Shown one piece after another: positions 3,013-61,530 of a stretch of 64,000 nt of DNA. The position numbers were made by a program, and so were the translations under genes. The DNA comes from Selenomonadales bacterium (lineage in GTDB: Bacteria > Bacillota > UBA994): positions 23,906 to 87,905 of the forward strand of contig JAGXRZ010000040.1 in NCBI GenBank assembly GCA_018335585.1, given 5' to 3'. The stretch's first letter is position 1, and each line of letters opens with the position of its first letter. The notes beneath the pieces are model-generated. The model was given only the letters and a program-made list of their open reading frames with translations. It ran no database searches and was not told the DNA's origin.

Positions 3013-4191
3013 ATGAGCAAACAACACATCGTCCTCGGCGTAACCGGCAGTATTGCCGTGTATAAGGCAGCTGACTTAACCAGCCGCCTCGTTAAGGCTG
3101 GCTACATTGTCGACGTGATAATGACCAAGGCGGCGCAGGAGTTTGTGCAGCCGCTTACGTTTCAGGCGCTGACGCACCGCCCTGTAGTTACCGAAATGTT
3201 TACGCTGCACAACGAAATGTCGGTTGAGCATATTGCCTTGGCGGAGCGGGCGAATGTGCTCCTCATTGCCCCCGCGACGGCAAACATTATTGCCAAGCTT
3301 AGGCACGGCCTAGCGGACGATATGCTAAGCTGCACGGCGCTGGCCACACGGGCGCCGCTTGTTATCGCTCCCGCCATGAATAACGGCATGTACGAGAATC
3401 CGGTAACGCAAGAGAACATCGCGGTGCTAAAGGCGCGCGGCGTTACTTTTGTCGGCCCGGGCGAAGGGTATCTCGCCTGCGGCACCGTCGGGCGCGGGCG
3501 CCTTACGGAGATTTTGGATATCTTTGATACCGTAAAGATGGTGCTTGGGCGAAGCGGGGACTTAGCGGGACGAAAAGTCGTGATTACAGCGGGAGGTACA
3601 GAAGAACCGATTGATCCTGTGCGCTGTATTACTAACCGCTCCTCCGGCAAAATGGGCTATGCCTTAGCCGAGGCGGCGCGCGACCGCGGCGCGTCTGTGA
3701 CGCTAATCGCAGGCCCCACCAGCCTCCGCGCTCCCTACGGCGTCAACTGCGTTCCCGTACGCACCGCCCTGGAGATGCTTGCGGCAGTGCAGGCAGCCAC
3801 ACGCGACTGCGACGCCTTGGTGATGGCCGCCGCCGTCGCCGATTACCGCGTGGCCGAGGTGGCCGAACAAAAGATAAAGAAAGCCGCCAAAACTCTCAGC
3901 CTAGAGCTAGTAAAGAACCCGGACATTCTCGCTAGTCTTACCGGCGACTTTGCTAAAATAGGCTTTGCCGCCGAAAGCCAAGACCTCTTGGCTAACGCCG
4001 CGGCCAAACTAGAAGCCAAAGGACTGCACATGATTGTAGCTAACGACATCACACGCGCGGGTAGCGGCTTTGGCACAGAAACCAACGAAGCCACCCTGCT
4101 CTACCGGGGCGGCCGCCGCGAAGCTTTGCCGCTGATGACAAAAGAACGCCTAGCGCATATAATACTGGATAGACTAACCGACCTATACTAG
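3013..4191 (+). CDS. coaBC: Bifunctional phosphopantothenoylcysteine decarboxylase / phosphopantothenate-cysteine ligase CoaBC
   Basis: N-terminal flavoprotein domain (GVTGSIAVYK...) plus C-terminal CoaB ligase domain; 392 aa; GGAGG RBS. Confidence 0.9.
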   Translation: MSKQHIVLGVTGSIAVYKAADLTSRLVKAGYIVDVIMTKAAQEFVQPLTFQALTHRPVVTEMFTLHNEMSVEHIALAERANVLLIAPATANIIAKLRHGLADDMLSCTALATRAPLVIAPAMNNGMYENPVTQENIAVLKARGVTFVGPGEGYLACGTVGRGRLTEILDIFDTVKMVLGRSGDLAGRKVVITAGGTEEPIDPVRCITNRSSGKMGYALAEAARDRGASVTLIAGPTSLRAPYGVNCVPVRTALEMLAAVQAATRDCDALVMAAAVADYRVAEVAEQKIKKAAKTLSLELVKNPDILASLTGDFAKIGFAAESQDLLANAAAKLEAKGLHMIVANDITRAGSGFGTETNEATLLYRGGRREALPLMTKERLAHIILDRLTDLY

Positions 4192-5590: not shown

Positions 5591-6363
5591 GGATTTCTAT
5601 CCATGAGTTAAAAAAGATGAAGGCGGCAGGTCAGAAGATAGCCGCCTTAACCGCTTACGACTACCCTACCGCCAAGCTCGTCGATGAGTGTGGCATCCCC
5701 ATCATCCTAGTAGGCGATAGCCTAGGCATGGTCGTACTCGGCCTTGAGTCCACTATTCCTGTGACCATGGAGGTTATGCTGCACCATGTGGCTGCTGTAG
5801 CGCGTGGGGCGAAGCGCGCCATTATCGTCGGCGATATGCCGTTTGGCACATACCACTTGTCGTCTGAGGACGCTCTGCGTAACGCCATACGCCTAGTGCA
5901 GCAAGGAGGCGCTACGGCCGTAAAGCTTGAGGGCGGCGTCACGGTCGCAGCTCAGGTAGAAAGAATCGTCTCGTCAGGCATTCCTGTCATGGGACATATC
6001 GGTCTAACCCCGCAATACGTGCATCAACTTGGCGGGTACAAAGTCCAAGGCAAATCAGCCGATGCGGCAGAACGATTGCTCGCCGATGCTAAGGCGCTCG
6101 AGAGCGCTGGCGTCTTCTCTGTGGTGCTTGAGTGCATGCCAAGCAGCCTTGCGGCAGAGATAAGCCAAAGCGTCGCCGTGCCGACGATTGGCATTGGCGC
6201 CGGGCCGCACTGCGACGGCCAAATCCAAGTGATTAGCGATGTGTTAGGGTTAAGCGACTACATCCCCAAACACGCCAAGCAGTTTGTTAAGCTGCCTGAC
6301 GTAATCCGCGGAGTGGTGCAAGCGTATGCCGATGAGGTGACGCGGGGAGTATTTGGCGCATGA
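5587..6363 (+). CDS. panB: 3-methyl-2-oxobutanoate hydroxymethyltransferase PanB
   Basis: 258 aa, TAYDYPTAK...VGDSLGMV motif region typical of PanB; start overlaps panD stop. Confidence 0.9.
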
Positions 6364-12686: not shown

Positions 12687-14822
12687 CTACATCCCCTTCA
12701 TCGACAGGCCGATGCGTTTGCGCTTTAGGTCAACGCTGAGAATCCTTACTTTTACTACATCGCCGACAGATAGGGCCTCGGACGGGTGCTTAATGTACTT
12801 GTCGCTTATCTCCGAGATATGCACTAGGCCGTCCTGCTTAACACCGATGTCTACAAACGCGCCGAAATCTATGACGTTGCGCACTACGCCGCTTAGCACC
12901 ATGCCCTCGGCGAGGTCTTCCATTTGCAGCACGTCGCTGCGAAACACGGGCCCGGCGACATCTTCGCGCGGATCCCTGCCCGGCTTTTTCAGGGCGTGGT
13001 AGATATCCCGCAGCGTGGGGAGACCGGCATTAAGCTCCTCTGCGGCTTTAGCGAGAGCCCCTTCGTTTAGCTGCACTTGTCCGGTGGTGAGCGACTCAAG
13101 GTTCCCTACAAGGCGCAAGAACTTCTCGGCTAGGTCATAGGATTCCGGGTGAACGGGCGTATTGTCCAGTATGTTTTTAGCGGCAGGTATCCTAGTAAAC
13201 CCTGCGCACTGCGTGTATGTGGCCGGGCCTAAGCGCGGCACTTTCCTTAGCTGCTCGCGGGAGGAAAACGCGCCGTGCTCGTCGCGAAACGCCACGATGT
13301 TCTTTGCCACCGTCGGGCTAACTCCCGCTACATAGCGCAAGAGCGCGGGTGAGGCGGTGTTAAGGTCAACGCCTACGCTGTTCACGCAGTCCTCAACTAC
13401 ACCCGTTAGCTTGCCGGCCAGCTGCTTTTGGTCGACATCGTGTTGGTATTGCCCGACCCCAATTGCTTTGGGGTCGATTTTTACTAGTTCGGCCAGCGGG
13501 TCGAGCACGCGGCGGCCGATCGACACCGCGCCGCGGAGGGTAACGTCTAAATCCGGCAGTTCTTGACCGGCTAGCTCGGACGCCGAGTAAACGGATGCCC
13601 CCGCCTCATTCACAATCGTATAGGACACGCGGAGATTATGCTCGCGGATTAGATTGGCGATAAAGTCCTCTGTTTCCCGGCTACCCGTGCCGTTGCCGAT
13701 GGCTATGGCTTGCACCCCATGGGTTTCTATCAGTTGCTTAACTAAGCGCGCGCCCCCGCTCCGGTCGTTTTGGGGCGGGGTAAAGTACGCCACGGCGGTG
13801 GCCAAAACTTTGCCTGTAGTGCCGACCACCGCCATTTTGCAGCCGGTGCGGTAGGCAGGGTCGATGGCGAGAAACGTCTTGCCCTTGACCGGGGCCAGTA
13901 ACAGCAACTGCTTAAGGTTCTGCCCAAACACCTTAATGGCTTGTTCCTCTGCTTGCTCGGTTAGGGTAGCCCTTAGCTCTCGCTCAATAGAGGGCAGCAG
14001 CAACCGCTTGCAGCCGTCGCGAATGGCGTCAACGAGGACCTGGCCAACTCCCGTCTGCGCGCCCATAAACCTTAGCGTCGCAACCTGATACGCCTTCTCC
14101 TCGGGATAGGTGAGCGTTACCTTGAGGACTTCCTCCCGTTCGCCGCGGTTAAGGGCGAGCACGCGGTGGGGCGGGATTTTGCGCACCGGTTCGCTGTAAT
14201 CGTAGTACATTTCGTACACGGATGTCTGCTCAGTGCCGATAGCTTTGGAAGCGATGCTCGCCTCCTGACGCAAGAAAGCGCGCACGGCTTCGCGTACGGC
14301 AAATGTTTCGCTCATGCGTTCGGCTAGGATGTCCTGTGCACCTTCGATGGCCGCCTCGACATCCAAAACGCCTAGTTCGGTGTTGACATAGGTCGAAGCA
14401 ACAGACAGAAGGCCGGCATAATCTAACCCGGGGTTAGCGGCTAGGTAGTCCGCTAAAGGTTCAAGGCCCTTTTCCTTGGCAATCGTCGCCTTGGTGCGCC
14501 GTTTGGGGCGGAAGGGCAGGTATATGTCTTCGACCTGCTGTAGTGTAGTGGCCCCGCGCAGGTTGCTTTCCACTTCAGGCGTGAGTTTGCCCTGCTCGGC
14601 GATAAGCCGCGCTACCTCTGCTTTGCGGGAGGCGAGGTTCTTAAGGTATGTAAGTCGCTCGTCAACTTCGCGCAGTTTAACTTCGTCAAGTTCCCCGGTT
14701 ACCTCCTTGCGGTAGCGGGCGATAAAAGGAATGGTGTTCCCCTCTGCTAGCAGCTTGTCTACGCTTTCTACTTGCTCGCGCTTAAGGCCAAGTTCATGCG
14801 CTATCTTTATGTGCAGATCCAT
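12687..14822 (-). CDS. tex: Transcription accessory protein Tex (S1 RNA-binding, YqgF/RNase H-like and HhH domains)
   Basis: 711 aa; C-terminal S1 domain (GMVLSGVVRNVIDFGAFVDIG), central YqgF and helix-hairpin-helix regions; convergent with the fur-family gene, 6 bp apart. Confidence 0.9.
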   Translation of the reverse strand: MDLHIKIAHELGLKREQVESVDKLLAEGNTIPFIARYRKEVTGELDEVKLREVDERLTYLKNLASRKAEVARLIAEQGKLTPEVESNLRGATTLQQVEDIYLPFRPKRRTKATIAKEKGLEPLADYLAANPGLDYAGLLSVASTYVNTELGVLDVEAAIEGAQDILAERMSETFAVREAVRAFLRQEASIASKAIGTEQTSVYEMYYDYSEPVRKIPPHRVLALNRGEREEVLKVTLTYPEEKAYQVATLRFMGAQTGVGQVLVDAIRDGCKRLLLPSIERELRATLTEQAEEQAIKVFGQNLKQLLLLAPVKGKTFLAIDPAYRTGCKMAVVGTTGKVLATAVAYFTPPQNDRSGGARLVKQLIETHGVQAIAIGNGTGSRETEDFIANLIREHNLRVSYTIVNEAGASVYSASELAGQELPDLDVTLRGAVSIGRRVLDPLAELVKIDPKAIGVGQYQHDVDQKQLAGKLTGVVEDCVNSVGVDLNTASPALLRYVAGVSPTVAKNIVAFRDEHGAFSSREQLRKVPRLGPATYTQCAGFTRIPAAKNILDNTPVHPESYDLAEKFLRLVGNLESLTTGQVQLNEGALAKAAEELNAGLPTLRDIYHALKKPGRDPREDVAGPVFRSDVLQMEDLAEGMVLSGVVRNVIDFGAFVDIGVKQDGLVHISEISDKYIKHPSEALSVGDVVKVRILSVDLKRKRIGLSMKGM

Positions 14823-14992: not shown

Positions 14993-15146
14993 GAAAAGAA
15001 TAGTGGTCACGAGCTAAAGTGTGTCTAGGGTTCCGTAGCCTAAAGCTAGCCTGGACCGAGCGACACTAGCGCGTTGCGCTACACCGAAGGGATAAAAGCC
15101 CGGGCGGGGATGTTTTCTCGTAAACATCCCCGCCCGTTTTCTTTTT
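14993..15146 (+). ncRNA. Candidate structured leader / cis-regulatory RNA (~150 nt) upstream of the pur operon; class unassigned
   Basis: Bounded by the promoter above and a strong terminator (gggcggggatgttt...aaacatccccgccc + GTTTTCTTTTT at 15102-15146). Internal helices GUGUC..GACAC and UAGCGC-GUU-GCGCUA. Loop CUCGU is complementary to upstream ACGAG, suggesting a terminator/antiterminator switch. Confidence 0.35.
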
Positions 15147-15147
15147 C

Positions 15148-15528
15148 GCCAGCCGCCAGCCGCCAGCCGCCAGCCGCCAGCCGCCAGCCGCCAGCCGCCA
15201 GCCGCCAGCCGCCAGCCGCTGGCCGGCAGCGGAGCAGTGACGGGGTGGAAAGGTGGAAAGGTGGAAAAGTTAAAGGGGTAAGGGCTGTGAGCTGTGAGCT
15301 GTGAGGATAGGCTTTAGGCGTTAGGCGCTAGGGGAACGGGCTGTGAGCTTAAGCATTGAGCTGTGCACGAAGAGGAAGCGGATACCGCGGCGACGCGCTC
15401 TACTGGGCACTGAGCACTGGGCACTTCCCTACCAGGAGTCAGGAGCCAGCAGCTAGGAGCCCCTCGTCCTTCACGGAGCACGAAGCACGCTCCCTACTAG
15501 GATCCAGTAGCCAGTAGCCAGCCGCCCT
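15148..15528. repeat. Heptamer tandem-repeat locus C (~380 bp mosaic array)
   Basis: Blocks [GCCAGCC]x10, [GGTGGAAA]x3, [GTGAGCT]x3, [TAGGCNN]x3, [CTGGGCA/CTGAGCA]x3, [CAGGAGN]x4, [AGCACGN]x3, [CCAGTAG]x2; fills the whole interval between the leader terminator and the purB RBS. Confidence 0.9.
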
Positions 15529-15546
15529 ACAAAGGAGGAAGAACGA

Positions 15547-20754: not shown

Positions 20755-22184
20755 ACGGTAAGCTCAGGGAAGAGTGCGGTGTGCTCGGCCTCTATGGGCA
20801 TGGTCTAGACGTGGCCCGGTTAGGATACTTTGGCCTGTTCGCCCTACAGCACCGCGGGCAGGAAAGCGCCGGCCTCGCGGTGATAAACGGCAAAGAAATT
20901 AAGACCCACCGAGGACTTGGCTTAGTGGCGGATGTCTTCACAGAAGACGATGTCGCCGCTTTGGGGGATGTAGGGGCACATATGGCCGTCGGCCATGTGC
21001 GTTACTCCACCGCAGGGGGCGGCGGCTTAGCTAACAGCCAGCCGCTAGTAGCCAGTCACCTGCGCGGACACATTGCGCTTGCACACAACGGCAACCTCGT
21101 TAACAATGACCAACTGCGCGAGGAGCTTGAGGGTCAGGGAGCCATATTTCACACCACCAGCGACACGGAAGTTATTCTTAGCCTAATGGCGCGCTACCGC
21201 CAAAGCGGCAACGAAAACGCGCTGCTGCAATCACTCACCCATGTACAGGGGGCTTATAGCCTAGTGCTCGGCACGGAGACGGAGCTGATTGGCGTGCGCG
21301 ACCCGCATGGCTTTCGTCCCTTGGCCTTAGGACGGTTAGGGCCGGCGGGCTATGTACTGGCTTCGGAGAGTGCCGCGATTGACGCCATAGGCGGCGAGTT
21401 TGTGCGCGATATTCGCCCCGGCGAAATCGTGGTTATCGACCAAAGTGGCGTGCGCTTCCGCCGCTTTAGCGACAGCGCTGTTTCGGCCTGCATCTTTGAG
21501 TACATTTACTTCGCCCGAAACGACAGCACTATCGACGGCCTAAACGTCTATCGCGCGCGAGAAGCTTTAGGGCTCTGCCTAAGCCAGGAACATCCGGTAG
21601 CGGCCGATGTCGTAATCCCCGTGCCCGACTCCGGCACTCCGGCAGCACTAGGCTATGCCAGAGGGGCAAACCTTCCTTTCGCGGAAGGCTTGGTGAAAAA
21701 CCGCTATGTCGGACGCACGTTTATTGAGCCGGGGCAGGCGTTGCGTGAGCTTAAAGTTAGGCTCAAACTTACGGCCAACACCGAAGTAATTGCCGGTAAG
21801 CGCGTAATCATGGTCGACGATTCCATTGTGCGCGGCACCACCACGCAAATCCTAGTAAAGATGCTGCGGCAAGCCGGGGCCAGTGAAGTACATGTGCGCA
21901 TAAGCTGTCCGCCTTACTTGAGCCCCTGCTACTTTGGTATAGACACACCCTCTAGCGCCGAGCTCGTGGCGGCGCGCTGTAACGTCGACGAAATGTGTGC
22001 GTTGCTCGGTGCCGACAGCCTTGGGTTCTTAAGCCTCGCGGGGACGCTCTCCGCCCTGGCGACCAGAGAGACGCCCGCTTGCGTCAGTTGTTTTACCGGG
22101 GTCTATCCCATGCCCATTTTGAAAGTAAAGCAGGGGGCGCCAAAGCCAGACCAAAGAGAGGAGTGGGGTGACGTGCGTGGGTAA
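20736..22184 (+). CDS. purF: Amidophosphoribosyltransferase PurF (with N-terminal propeptide)
   Basis: [10 protein letters not shown] Ntn-hydrolase catalytic Cys after a ~13-aa propeptide; PRT domain downstream; GGAGGGA RBS before ATG 20736. Confidence 0.9.
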
Positions 22185-23223
22185 GGAAGTAGGGGGCAGG
22201 GGAGCGGGTCTCACGTACCGCGACGCAGGCGTAGATGTCGCAGCCGGTCATCAAGCGGTTGACCTTATGCGGGCGCACGTGCGCTCTACCTTTCGCCGCG
22301 AGGTGCTGGGGGATATCGGCGGTTTCGGCGGGCTGTTTGCCTTAGGCAAGTACGAGGAGCCGGTCTTAGTGTCCGGCACGGACGGCGTCGGCAGCAAGCT
22401 TAAGGTAGCCTTTATGCTTGGGCGTCACAACACAGTCGGCATCGACCTCGTAGCCATGTCGGCCAACGACATCTTGGTCTCAGGTGCAGAGCCGCTGTTT
22501 TTCCTCGACTACATCGGCATTGCCCGCTTAGACCCCATTTTGGTGGCCGAGATTGTGGCCGGCGTTGCCGCAGGCTGCCAAGCCGCGGGGTGCGCGCTTA
22601 TAGGCGGCGAAACAGCCGAACTGCCAGACCTCTACAGCGCGGGCGAGTACGACCTAGCCGGGTTTGCCGTAGGTGTAGCGGAGAAAAAGCGTCTTATCGA
22701 CGGTAAAACAATTAGCTGTGGCGATATGCTGCTTGGGCTTGCGTCTAGCGGACTGCATAGCAACGGCTATTCGCTGGCGCGCAAACTAGTATTCGAAGTC
22801 GGCGGGTTTACCTGTGCCGATGTGCCGCCGGCACTAGGCGTAGCAGTCGGGGAAGAACTGCTCCGTCCGACGCGCATCTATGTGCGACCCGTACTGCCGC
22901 TAGTACGGCTAGGCTTAGTTAAAGGCATGGCCCACATTACAGGCGGCGGGTTTATCGACAATATTCCGCGCATGCTCCCCGCCGGTCTTGGCGTGGAAGT
23001 AACGCGCGGGAGCTGGCCTGTTTTGCCCGTTTTTGGCTGGCTCCAAGAACTTGGTCAGGTAGCCGAGAGCGAAATGTACCGCACGTTTAATATGGGAATT
23101 GGCTTTGTGCTCTTTGTGGCCGCAACAGACGTAGCCGCAGTACGCGAGCGGCTTGCAGGCTTTGGCGAAGAAAGCTATGTCATAGGGAAAGTAATCGCGG
23201 GTGAGGGGGTTTCGCTTGTCTGA
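22168..23223 (+). CDS. purM: AIR synthetase PurM
   Basis: 351 aa; YRDAGVDV N-terminal motif and PurM fold. Confidence 0.9.
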
Positions 23224-23224
23224 T

Positions 23225-23920
23225 GTGACACAACACTTCCCCAAGCGACAAGCGACAAGCGACAAGCGACATACGCCAAGCGACAAGCGACATCCCCCCC
23301 CCTTACGCCTTGCCGTCCTAGTCTCAGGCGGCGGAACTACTTTGCAGGGGCTAATAGACGCCATAGCGGCAGGCTCGCTCGGCGCGGAAATCGCCTTGGT
23401 CGTCAGTTCGCGGCGCGATGCTTTCGCCCTTGAGCGCGCGCGCCGCTCCGACATTCCTACCTGCGTACTTAGCAGGCGCGCTTTCACAACGCCCGAGCAA
23501 CACGATGCGGCCCTCGCCGGGCTACTGCAGCAACACCAAGTTGACCTCGTCGTCTTAGCGGGCTACTTGCTGCCCATAGGCCAAGCGACGCTAAGTGCGT
23601 TCCCGGGGCGGATTATAAACATTCATCCCAGTCTCCTGCCCGCCTTTGGCGGACGGGGATATTACGGGTCACGCGTACATACCGAAGTTCTGGAGCACGG
23701 CTGTAAGATTACCGGGGCTACCGTGCACTTTGTGGAGGCCGAGCTCGACACAGGACCCATAATTTTGCAGGGAGCCGTAGAAATAGAGGACGACGACACG
23801 AGCGAGTCGCTCGCAGCTAAGGTAGGAGAACTCGAGCGCGAGCTGTACCCAAGAGCCATTCAACTTTTTGCCGACGGCAAGCTCCGGCAAGTCGGGCGCA
23901 GGGTAACGATTCTAAAGTGA
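23225..23920 (+). CDS. purN: GAR formyltransferase PurN, with repeat-encoded N-terminal extension
   Basis: Conserved PurN core starts at LRLAVLVSGGG (~23303) and contains the HPSLLP motif. The only in-frame starts (GTG 23201, TTG 23216, GTG 23225) lie upstream of the heptamer array. ~26 extra residues (TQHFPKRQATSDKRHTPSDKRHPPP) are therefore translated from the CAAGCGA repeats and a C9 tract. Confidence 0.8.
   Translation: MTQHFPKRQATSDKRHTPSDKRHPPPLRLAVLVSGGGTTLQGLIDAIAAGSLGAEIALVVSSRRDAFALERARRSDIPTCVLSRRAFTTPEQHDAALAGLLQQHQVDLVVLAGYLLPIGQATLSAFPGRIINIHPSLLPAFGGRGYYGSRVHTEVLEHGCKITGATVHFVEAELDTGPIILQGAVEIEDDDTSESLAAKVGELERELYPRAIQLFADGKLRQVGRRVTILK
23242..23302. repeat. Heptamer tandem-repeat locus D: [CAAGCGA]x4, catacgc, [CAAGCGA]x2, then cat+C9, inside the purN 5' coding region
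   Basis: Copy number taken from the ORF-track translation (KRQATSDKRHTPSDKRHPPP), which requires four plus two units followed by nine C. Confidence 0.8.
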
Positions 23921-28399: not shown

Positions 28400-28423
28400 A
28401 CCTACGTTGAGGAGGTGTGGGTC

Positions 28424-29494
28424 GTGAACGAGCCAAAATTACCTATGTTGCCGCCTCGTGCCGATCTGGAAAGCAGGGCGGCACTTAAGCAGTTGGCCAG
28501 GGCTAACCGCGCTTTAGCTGAACTAAAAGGTTATGCGAGTACGATTCCTAATCAACATATGTTGATTAATGCGGTCATGATTAAGGAGGCCAAGGATAGT
28601 TCAGCTATCGAAAACATAATAACTACACACGACGACCTCTATCGGGCGATGAGTAACGCTGGTAAAGCGAGTATCGCCGCTAAGGAAGTCGTCAGCTATA
28701 GGGAAGCCTTATGGCATGGCTATCAATCGGTCAGAGCAAGGCAAGTGCTCACAACCTCGATGATCATCGAAATCCAAGAAATGATAGAGAAGAATACTGC
28801 TGGTTTAAGGAAGTTGCCTGGAACAGTCTTGCGCAACGAAGCTACTGGTGAGATCGTTTATACTCCACCATCTACCGAGCACGACATTAAACAACTACTG
28901 GCAAATCTAGAGACATACATCAATGAAGACGACGATGATGTAGATCATCTGATTAAGCTCGCGGTCCTGCATTACCAATTTGAAGTTATCCATCCTTTTT
29001 ATGATGGCAATGGGCGCACCGGCAGGATAGTCAACGTCCTGTATCTAGTCTTGAAAGGCCTGCTTGAGAGCCCGGTACTCTATCTGAGTAGTTTTATTAT
29101 CAGGAACAAGCCTGCCTATTACCGTCTGTTACAGGAAGTGCGCACGCATGACAACTGGGAAGAATGGATTCTATACATTCTGACTGGCATAGAACAGACT
29201 GCTGCGGAGACCTTGTTCTTGATAAGAAAGATCAATCAAGAAGCAGAAGCAATGAGCGCAGAGATTCAGGCTAGGCTGCCCAAGATATATTCACAAGAAC
29301 TGATGAGTCTGCTTTTCTATGAGTTCTATACTAAGACCCACTATATAGAGAAGGGCTTGGCGGTAACCAGAAAGACAGCCGTTAGCTACCTATCAGCGTT
29401 AGAGAGGGAAGGCTTTTTGAGCTCAGAAAGAATCGGCAAAGAGCGCATCTACCTCAACCGGAGACTCTACGATTTGGTGAGGGCGGGGCAATAA
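28424..29494 (+). CDS. fic: Fic/Doc family protein, class II (N-terminal inhibitory helix), C-terminal winged HTH
   Basis: Canonical HPFYDGNGRTGR Fic motif; SSAIEN matches the [ST]xxxE[GN] inhibitory motif N-terminal of the Fic core; gene is visibly AT-richer than its flanks; GAGGAGG RBS 8 nt before GTG 28424. Confidence 0.85.
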   Translation: MNEPKLPMLPPRADLESRAALKQLARANRALAELKGYASTIPNQHMLINAVMIKEAKDSSAIENIITTHDDLYRAMSNAGKASIAAKEVVSYREALWHGYQSVRARQVLTTSMIIEIQEMIEKNTAGLRKLPGTVLRNEATGEIVYTPPSTEHDIKQLLANLETYINEDDDDVDHLIKLAVLHYQFEVIHPFYDGNGRTGRIVNVLYLVLKGLLESPVLYLSSFIIRNKPAYYRLLQEVRTHDNWEEWILYILTGIEQTAAETLFLIRKINQEAEAMSAEIQARLPKIYSQELMSLLFYEFYTKTHYIEKGLAVTRKTAVSYLSALEREGFLSSERIGKERIYLNRRLYDLVRAGQ

Positions 29495-38187: not shown

Positions 38188-42562
<4,375 letters not shown>

Positions 42563-61229: not shown

Positions 61230-61530
61230 GCGCCAGCCGCCGGGAGAGATTGCACTTCGCACTTGGCACTTAGCACTTAGTGGAGGACGAGGGGTTGCTG
61301 GCTGCTGGCTCCTGGCTCCTGGTAGAGAAGGTGCCCAGTGCCCAGTGCCCAGTAGAGCGCGTCGCAGCGGTTTCGGTTTCCCTTTGACCTTTCCACCCTC
61401 CATGCTCACAACTCACAACTCACAACTCACAATTCACAACTCACAAGCGACAAGGGACAAGCGACAAGGGACAAGCGACAAGGGACAAGCGACAAGGGAC
61501 AAGCGACATGCGACAAGCGACAAGCCACCA
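61230..61530. repeat. Heptamer tandem-repeat locus E (~300 bp mosaic array)
   Basis: gccagccgcc, [GCACTTN]x4, [GCTGGCT/GCTCCTG]x4, [GTGCCCA]x3, ggtttcggtttcc, cctttccacc, [CACAACT]x5, then alternating [CAAGCGA/CAAGGGA]x11; spans from the fRMsr stop to 80 bp before nrdD. Confidence 0.9.

Follow-up and report, generated by a model that had tools for sequence, protein, structure and literature searches.

A CAAGCGA heptamer array at the purM–purN junction, probably read as an N-terminal leader of PurN

In the 64-kb stretch of DNA analysed here (the window), from a contig named Selenomonadales bacterium, the 5′ end of the purine gene purN holds a tandem array of the 7-nucleotide unit CAAGCGA followed by a run of nine C. 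We propose, with a probability of roughly three in four, that this array is a tolerated, frame-constrained, repeat-derived N-terminal leader of PurN that is read from a conserved TTG start codon at 23216. The array and the C-tract would be one local copy of a genome-wide heptamer simple sequence repeat (SSR) family that elsewhere fills intergenic spacers and 5′ leaders. As purM and purN overlap (TTGTCTGA) and leave no spacer between them, the repeat would have lodged just after the purN start codon. Initiation at TTG 23216 from a GAGGGGG ribosome-binding site, with the array and C9 read in frame, would give a basic, hydrophilic, disordered leader of 29 residues (...KRQATSDKRHTPSDKRHPPP) hanging off the first β-strand (β1) of an ordinary PurN. 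A T-free insertion of this kind would cost the protein only a hydrophilic tail if its net length is a multiple of 3, and purifying selection would keep that length in frame. The phenomenon is of a known kind, an over-represented heptameric repeat intruding on coding sequence, in a new host.

The purN start codon and a repeat-derived leader

The gene upstream, purM (AIR synthase; 22168–23223, forward strand), was taken from the open reading frame (ORF) listing and from Pfam AIRS and AIRS_C matches to the gene called in identical contigs. Its TGA stop lies at 23221–23223, and its final codons hold both the ribosome-binding site and the start codon of purN. An antisense ORF at 22915–23487 (190 aa) is the complement of conserved purM and purN and was treated as spurious. 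The array, (CAAGCGA)4, CATACGC, (CAAGCGA)2 and CA, spans 23242–23292 on the forward strand, with exact units starting at 23242, 23249, 23256, 23263, 23277 and 23284 and one degenerate unit, CATACGC, at 23270–23276. Tandem Repeats Finder returned the same interval with period 7, 7.3 copies and a score of 81. The C9 run at 23294–23302 (forward strand), which is translated as Pro-Pro-Pro, is C7 in a second allele described below. The junction thus reads ...GGTGAGGGGGTTTCGCTTGTCTGATGTGACACAACACTTCCC(CAAGCGA)4CATACGC(CAAGCGA)2CAT-C9-TTACGCCTTGCC..., and the heptamer array, whose unit is not a multiple of 3, and the poly-C tract fall within the 5′ coding region, after the start at 23216 and before the core at 23303. 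The initial annotation had placed six CAAGCGA units and C9 between the candidate purN starts and the core, and this was borne out: ten contigs from differing assemblers and samples are base-identical over the part of the junction that each one covers, which is the whole junction for four (L001–L004) and everything from 23242 onward for six Logan contigs. The array is far above chance: a double CAAGCGA unit with at most two mismatches was matched 16 times in the window, and 0.68 matches would be expected. C9 is the sole C or G homopolymer of at least 7 and the sole homopolymer of at least 8 of any base in the 64 kb; a run of C8 or longer by itself is not unlikely, as it was equalled in 42 of 100 shuffles.

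A codon scan of the purN frame after the TAA at 23192 found only three ATG, GTG or TTG codons before the core, GTG 23201, TTG 23216 and GTG 23225, around the purM stop and exactly as had been annotated; the next is TTG 23342. Between 23228 and 23341 the frame contains no start codon and no near-cognate codon (CTG, ATT, ATC and ATA were checked). We aligned the junction from six lineages, namely the window, a 97% identical strain (contigs L034 and L039–L042), and L029, L035, L036 and L037, whose PurN proteins are 66%, 83%, 80% and 71% identical to that of the window, respectively (L037 is named NPL-UPA2 by its source). GTG 23201 and GTG 23225 are peculiar to the window, and TTG 23216 alone is conserved, as part of an invariant TTGTCT. 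A G-rich motif, GGGGGAGGG(G/C/T) or GGGTGAGGGGG, stands at the ribosome-binding-site position in all six; in the window it is the Shine-Dalgarno-like GAGGGGG at 23203–23209 (forward strand), read from the sequence, 6 nt upstream of TTG 23216. Translation most likely begins at TTG 23216 (23216–23218, forward strand), because it is the only candidate that is conserved in the six lineages, with a ribosome-binding site. A further contig, L043, carries the equivalent TTGCGTGA at the start. A 234-aa product from this codon is called by NCBI (MBS3985281.1, ‘Selenomonadales bacterium’), ENA and JGI, and that call is probably right.

The overlap between the purM stop and the purN start reads TTGTCTGA or TTGTCTAG, with TTG 5 nt before the purM stop codon. 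Its start overlapping the upstream stop, its ribosome-binding site inside purM and its retention in relatives, here in all six lineages, give it the classic layout of translationally coupled overlapping genes, which suggests that purN translation may be coupled to that of purM. The unusual part here is the sequence after the purN start codon.

The 29 codons at 23216–23302 (forward strand) lie outside the PurN fold by homology, by AlphaFold and by comparison with 70 homologues. The core, Formyl_trans_N, runs from 23303, where the conserved LRLAVLVSGGG starts, through the stop codon to 23920 (forward strand). It matched Pfam PF00551 at 179.6 bits against a cut-off of 26.1 and GAR transformylases in the PDB at E=1e-51 to 1e-38; homology to the structures and to the Pfam domain starts at residue 30–31, aligned to residue 2 of E. 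coli PurN. In the AlphaFold model the predicted local distance difference test score is 50–70 over residues 1–29 and 86–98 (mostly at least 93) from residue 31, with β1 at residues 30–36, which predicts a disordered leader ahead of a confidently modelled core. N135, H137 and D178, which we take to be equivalent to E. coli N106, H108 and D144, are invariant in the 70 homologues, as are S37, G38 and G40 of the glycine loop. The gene belongs to a complete operon in the order purL-purF-purM-purN-purH-purD-purE-purK. Given that there is no usable start downstream and that the gene looks functional, the repeat must be translated if purN is functional, and it is almost certainly translated as a 29-residue leader. 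The initial annotation was right that an in-frame leader is read from the repeat, but its estimate of about 26 residues gives way to 29, since the conserved start is TTG 23216.

That annotation had also raised a non-canonical internal start. On this account a non-canonical codon further downstream would be the true start of PurN, or insertion of the repeat would have displaced the start of a purN that is now decaying into a pseudogene. Most of the 70 homologues do have only 1–3 residues before β1, and no ribosome-binding site can be read next to the core. The frame between 23228 and 23341 offers no near-cognate codon, however, and a start at TTG 23342 would remove β1, the S37/G38/G40 loop and the first residues of the Pfam and PDB matches. 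With the ORF intact, every invariant residue present, the model confident, the pur operon complete and the frame kept across alleles, we consider this account very improbable.

The composition of the unit bears on how such a leader might be tolerated. As CAAGCGA contains no T, tandem copies of it are free of stop codons in all three frames, and since 7 is coprime to 3 these frames encode one heptapeptide rotated (QATSDKR, KRQATSD and SDKRQAT). With a T-free unit that gives the same peptide in every frame, total length is the only constraint. In the human trifunctional enzyme the GAR transformylase domain comes after an AIRS domain. It has been solved as a separate construct, which was among our PDB matches, and by analogy this suggests that an N-terminal extension of PurN is structurally tolerated. 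As in that AIRS-GART linker, a flexible stretch precedes β1 right after the AIR synthase coding sequence; unlike it, purM and purN are here separate genes with a stop and a start of their own, and the leader derives from a DNA repeat rather than a conserved linker. We infer that the leader may be functionally neutral.

Frame preservation and the question of slippage

Comparison of orthologous junctions, which the initial annotation had proposed, showed that the nearest relatives keep the leader short. In the three at 83%, 80% and 71% identity the leader is 9 residues long (MSSESPVRP) and there is no repeat. Relative to this leader, the window carries an insert of 60 nt (29 residues) and the second allele, found in L029, L034 and L039–L042, one of 48 nt (25 residues); both are multiples of 3. 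The second allele consists of (CAAGCGA)4, CACGCATGCAT and C7. Past the fourth unit its length differs from that of the window by 13 nt, and its C-tract differs by 2 nt; either difference on its own breaks the frame, and their sum of 15 nt is in frame. The protein cluster of the second allele has six members that have diverged in amino acids, every one of them 230 aa long. All 7 + 8 contig records give the same 234-aa window product, and no length variant occurs in its 90% cluster. We propose from these sequences that purifying selection holds the net leader length at a multiple of 3. The junction offers a clear case from nature of how a repeat that is not a triplet can enter a protein, with two neighbouring tracts that compensated each other. 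Conserved TTG and ribosome-binding site, frame-preserving indels, predicted disorder and the lack of a downstream start all support the option of a tolerated low-complexity leader that had been put forward among others. Neither of the two findings that the initial annotation named as refuting its observation was made: no start was found downstream of the repeat, and the relatives nearest to the window do not conserve the extension.

Shorter entries in the protein clusters were considered as frameshift alleles and rejected. The source contigs of the 192-aa members begin at the array. The 191-aa members have DNA that is in frame, and the caller also shortened purM and purH: gene calls on L039–L042 (JGI 3300045453-56) are systematically short, with PurN at 191 aa, PurM at 318 aa and PurH at 489 aa. 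The 191-aa PurN, without β1 and the glycine loop, is almost certainly a mis-called start; as annotated, these JGI entries lose the substrate-binding N-terminus. A scan of genome contigs with the PurN core found only distant PurN genes at 39–50% identity and no close relatives, and a scan of metagenome contigs with the 20-mer after the C-tract matched a single contig, L038, which is unrelated and was hit by chance.

The initial annotation had further suggested a slippage-prone switch. Slippage in the four-unit block or in C9 would then toggle purN, and by polarity perhaps purH and later genes, in subpopulations, as at a contingency locus; this would be feasible where the formate-dependent PurT or purine salvage substitutes. 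The sequence has some of the required properties: its 5′ coding region carries a non-triplet unit and a homopolymer, the 64 kb contain no other long homopolymer, and the two adjacent slippery tracts are able to compensate, as the window and second alleles show. Slippage itself does occur in this genome, where longer intergenic arrays vary between close strains: upstream of purB, the window and the 97% strain have about 12 versus 4 units of CGCCAGC and 2 versus 5 units of AGCACGA (window 15147–15230 and 15474–15490; L039 1859–1886 and 2127–2165). Against a switch, all window-allele assemblies that span the junction are identical and in frame, all five contigs of the second allele in the 97% strain are identical at the junction, and a collection of 15 billion proteins contains no out-of-frame (OFF) allele and no in-frame length variant. 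Neighbouring arrays of 3–4 copies are unchanged between the 97% strains, and the purN block, with four perfect units, belongs to this stable size class. A core biosynthetic gene is, moreover, an unusual target of phase variation.

Logan contigs break at the array, the left ones ending at 23267 and the right ones beginning at 23242 or 23243, and these breaks were considered as slippage heterogeneity. The L029 allele and the window share the 34-mer TCCCC(AAGCGAC)4A, and a de Bruijn simulation at k=31 that included the L029 allele produced exactly these two break points and none other in 5 kb. Simulated variants with 3 units, 5 units, C8 or C10 gave other break points. The contig breaks therefore show that two lineages co-occur rather than that the tract slips, and slippage heterogeneity was rejected. 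The same breaks are what might favour an assembly or sequencing artefact in the repeat or homopolymer; since the shared 34-mer accounts for them and the junction is identical in the spanning contigs from JGI, ENA (k141) and NCBI and in both flanking Logan contigs, such an artefact is barely credible.

SSR contingency loci are known from Haemophilus, Neisseria, Campylobacter and Helicobacter, with heptanucleotide repeats at hmw1A of H. influenzae (PMC8262952). The purN junction resembles them in that the 5′ end of the gene holds a non-triplet unit and a poly-C tract, both able in principle to shift the frame. It differs in that the array has only four perfect units, that the gene encodes a core biosynthetic enzyme rather than a surface or restriction-modification function, and that neither repeat-number polymorphism (among the 7 + 8 window-allele records) nor natural OFF alleles were found, the 191- and 192-aa entries reflecting in-frame DNA or contig edges. 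We therefore regard a switch as unlikely, and the evidence collected here gives that suggestion no support. If minority frameshift variants existed, the junction would be a rare contingency-type tract on a core biosynthetic gene.

Several points weigh against a neutral, translated leader. Translation of the repeat is itself something we infer from the sequence. The assemblies compared are consensus assemblies, which would hide a minority of frameshifted cells. The longer intergenic arrays that change copy number between 97% identical strains are in the same genome, and in some bacteria poly-C/G tracts of nine bases are hypermutable; C9 is plausibly a mutable tract. The argument from frame conservation carries modest weight, as it rests on two independent array-bearing alleles and two insert lengths. 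Finally, the apparent exchange of the array segment between lineages that are about 30% divergent, described next, could hint at selection rather than neutrality.

Exchange of the junction and possible functions of the leader

The 97% strain (L034 and L039–L042) matches the window on both flanks of the junction, but from about 23105 to 23335 it is instead 93–99% identical to L029, which is only about 70% identical outside this patch. The patch, of about 225 nt, was seen in four samples and reaches from the 3′ end of purM across the array and the C-tract into the opening codons of the purN core. The window and L029 are perfectly identical over two stretches: the first array block, where the 34-mer accounts for 34 nt, and the C-tract together with the 8 codons that open the core, where the identity extends for at least 30 nt. 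The purM 3′ end of the window, in contrast, resembles that of the nearest relatives, which have no array. These mosaic patterns suggest that the array-bearing junction probably moved between co-occurring lineages at least once. Such recombination is compatible with neutrality yet leaves room for selection.

The leader or the array might instead be functional and selected. C9 and an array unit could pair as RNA with the ribosome-binding site and start codon and so force coupling to purM, or a Pro-Pro-Pro stall or the basic peptide could tune the level or localisation of PurN. The minimum-free-energy fold does pair GGGGG with the C-run and UCGCUUGUC, which holds the start codon, with GACAAGCGA; the array segment is common to lineages that are about 70% identical elsewhere, and a patch of about 225 nt replaced the junction in the 97% strain; and heptamer arrays recur at the same junction in a lineage with 53% identical PurN. 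However, pairing of the ribosome-binding site and start codon was 0.82 compared with 0.74 ± 0.09 when the downstream sequence was shuffled, and 18% of shuffles equalled it. The whole-region z-score was −1.5, and neither the second allele nor the repeat-free relatives had a pairing excess, so a hairpin that occludes the start was rejected. The nearest relatives lack the element entirely, the peptide shows no conservation other than that dictated by the shared DNA repeat, with a lysine varying to glutamine in cluster members, and no Rfam family, promoter-like site or terminator-like site was found at the purM–purN junction. We consider a functional leader doubtful. A broader form of this idea seems similarly improbable: the array and C-tract as a mobile selected cassette, exchanged between co-occurring lineages as a reversible or tunable gate on purN translation, with PurN perhaps bypassed by the formate-dependent PurT, and the heptamer arrays together with the composite element built around GTGRAGGACGRGGGG (see below) as a cis-regulatory system of the lineage.

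The lineage with 53% identical PurN (L045) has heptamer arrays of AGTCACT and AAAATCC at 6037–6061 and 6124–6143 of its purM–purN junction. Its PurN is called through them at 280 aa, and an in-frame GTG or TTG downstream may be the real start.

Heptamer repeats across the window

Our own scan, together with Tandem Repeats Finder, found 14 arrays of period 7 covering 534 nt of the window, while the other periods from 4 to 12 had 0–2 arrays each. The 13 other period-7 arrays of our scan occupy gaps between ORFs or 5′ leaders, and they often stop immediately ahead of a ribosome-binding site; the purN copy is the exception to this placement. At ligA, for example, a mechanical ORF is open through four arrays, but the gene has its own GGAGG and ATG 40581 downstream of them. 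Unit families recur at several loci and in both orientations, among them AAGCGAC, AACTCAC, ACTGGGC and AAGTGCT; the CAAGCGA unit of purN (23242) is found again at 61443–61525 and, as the reverse complement, in L039 at 15045–15068. The window points to an uncultured lineage in which heptamer arrays, a bacterial repeat class that has received little study, densely populate gene junctions and 5′ leaders.

These arrays are STRR-like in their excess of period 7 (units in at least three copies), their mostly intergenic position near gene ends and their copy-number variation between relatives. They fall outside STRR in the strict sense, which implies a cyanobacterial host and STRR1–3 units, as the best named PurN relatives are Bacillota and NPL-UPA2. 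The window units also differ from the published STRR units CCCCAGT, TTGGTCA and CAACAGT. An excess of heptameric SSRs, mostly intergenic and variable between relatives, is known for GGGAATC in Xanthomonas, GGGGA(C/T)T in Nostoc and the STRR heptamers of Calothrix and Nostoc (PMC4692102 and work it cites). The window shares with these genomes tandem 7-nt units of many sequences, an excess of period 7, a mostly intergenic position near gene ends with an intragenic minority, and length variation. It differs in its host, by source names an uncultured Bacillota-like lineage related to candidate division NPL-UPA2; in its units, which are not of the G-quadruplex type; in that some arrays sit in a recurring composite element with a conserved non-repeat core; and in that a housekeeping gene, purN, has one copy within its first codons. 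The NPL-UPA2 genome paper makes no mention of repeats. In L037, an NPL-UPA2 metagenome-assembled genome, the purK ORF runs through (CCGTCAA)x5 at 13092–13129, which adds a C-terminal extension of about 20 residues (397 aa compared with 377 aa in the window).

The composite element, of about 100–120 nt, occurs in three copies, at 40380–40500 (+), 61245–61365 (+) and 15395–15530 (−). It comprises, from one end to the other, a heptamer array (GCACTTN or CGTGCTT), the core GTGRAGGACGRGGGG, a CTNGCTC array, CTGGTAGRGAA and a GTGCCCA array. The core has 3 matches against 0.36 expected, and the composite folds no better than shuffles. A related core, GGGGAGGACGG, is present in the L045 purM–purN junction. 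Elsewhere, a long hairpin immediately precedes the ORF at 3013, its arms being two heptamer arrays with reverse-complementary units at 2879–2913 (GCACTTN) and 2960–2988 (NAAGTGC); its folding energy is −49 kcal/mol (z = −4.7), and none of 200 shuffles was as stable.

Upstream of the whole pur operon, 15014–15108 (+) matched RF00442 (ykkC/Guanidine-I) at 62 bits, 1 bit below the gathering score, with E=1.5e-10. Given the pur context, we presume that this is probably ykkC subtype 2, of the phosphoribosyl pyrophosphate (PRPP) type, and not a guanidine sensor. A terminator-like hairpin and T-run lie beside it at about 15100–15146, and about 400 nt of heptamer arrays separate the riboswitch match from the purB ribosome-binding site. 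Downstream of purK, the window (28415–29494) and the 97% strain (L039 15024–15258 and 16807–18455) differ in content: the window has a Fic-domain gene between purK and dapF, where the 97% strain has heptamer arrays, and some contigs of that strain carry an XhoI-like restriction-modification pair further on.

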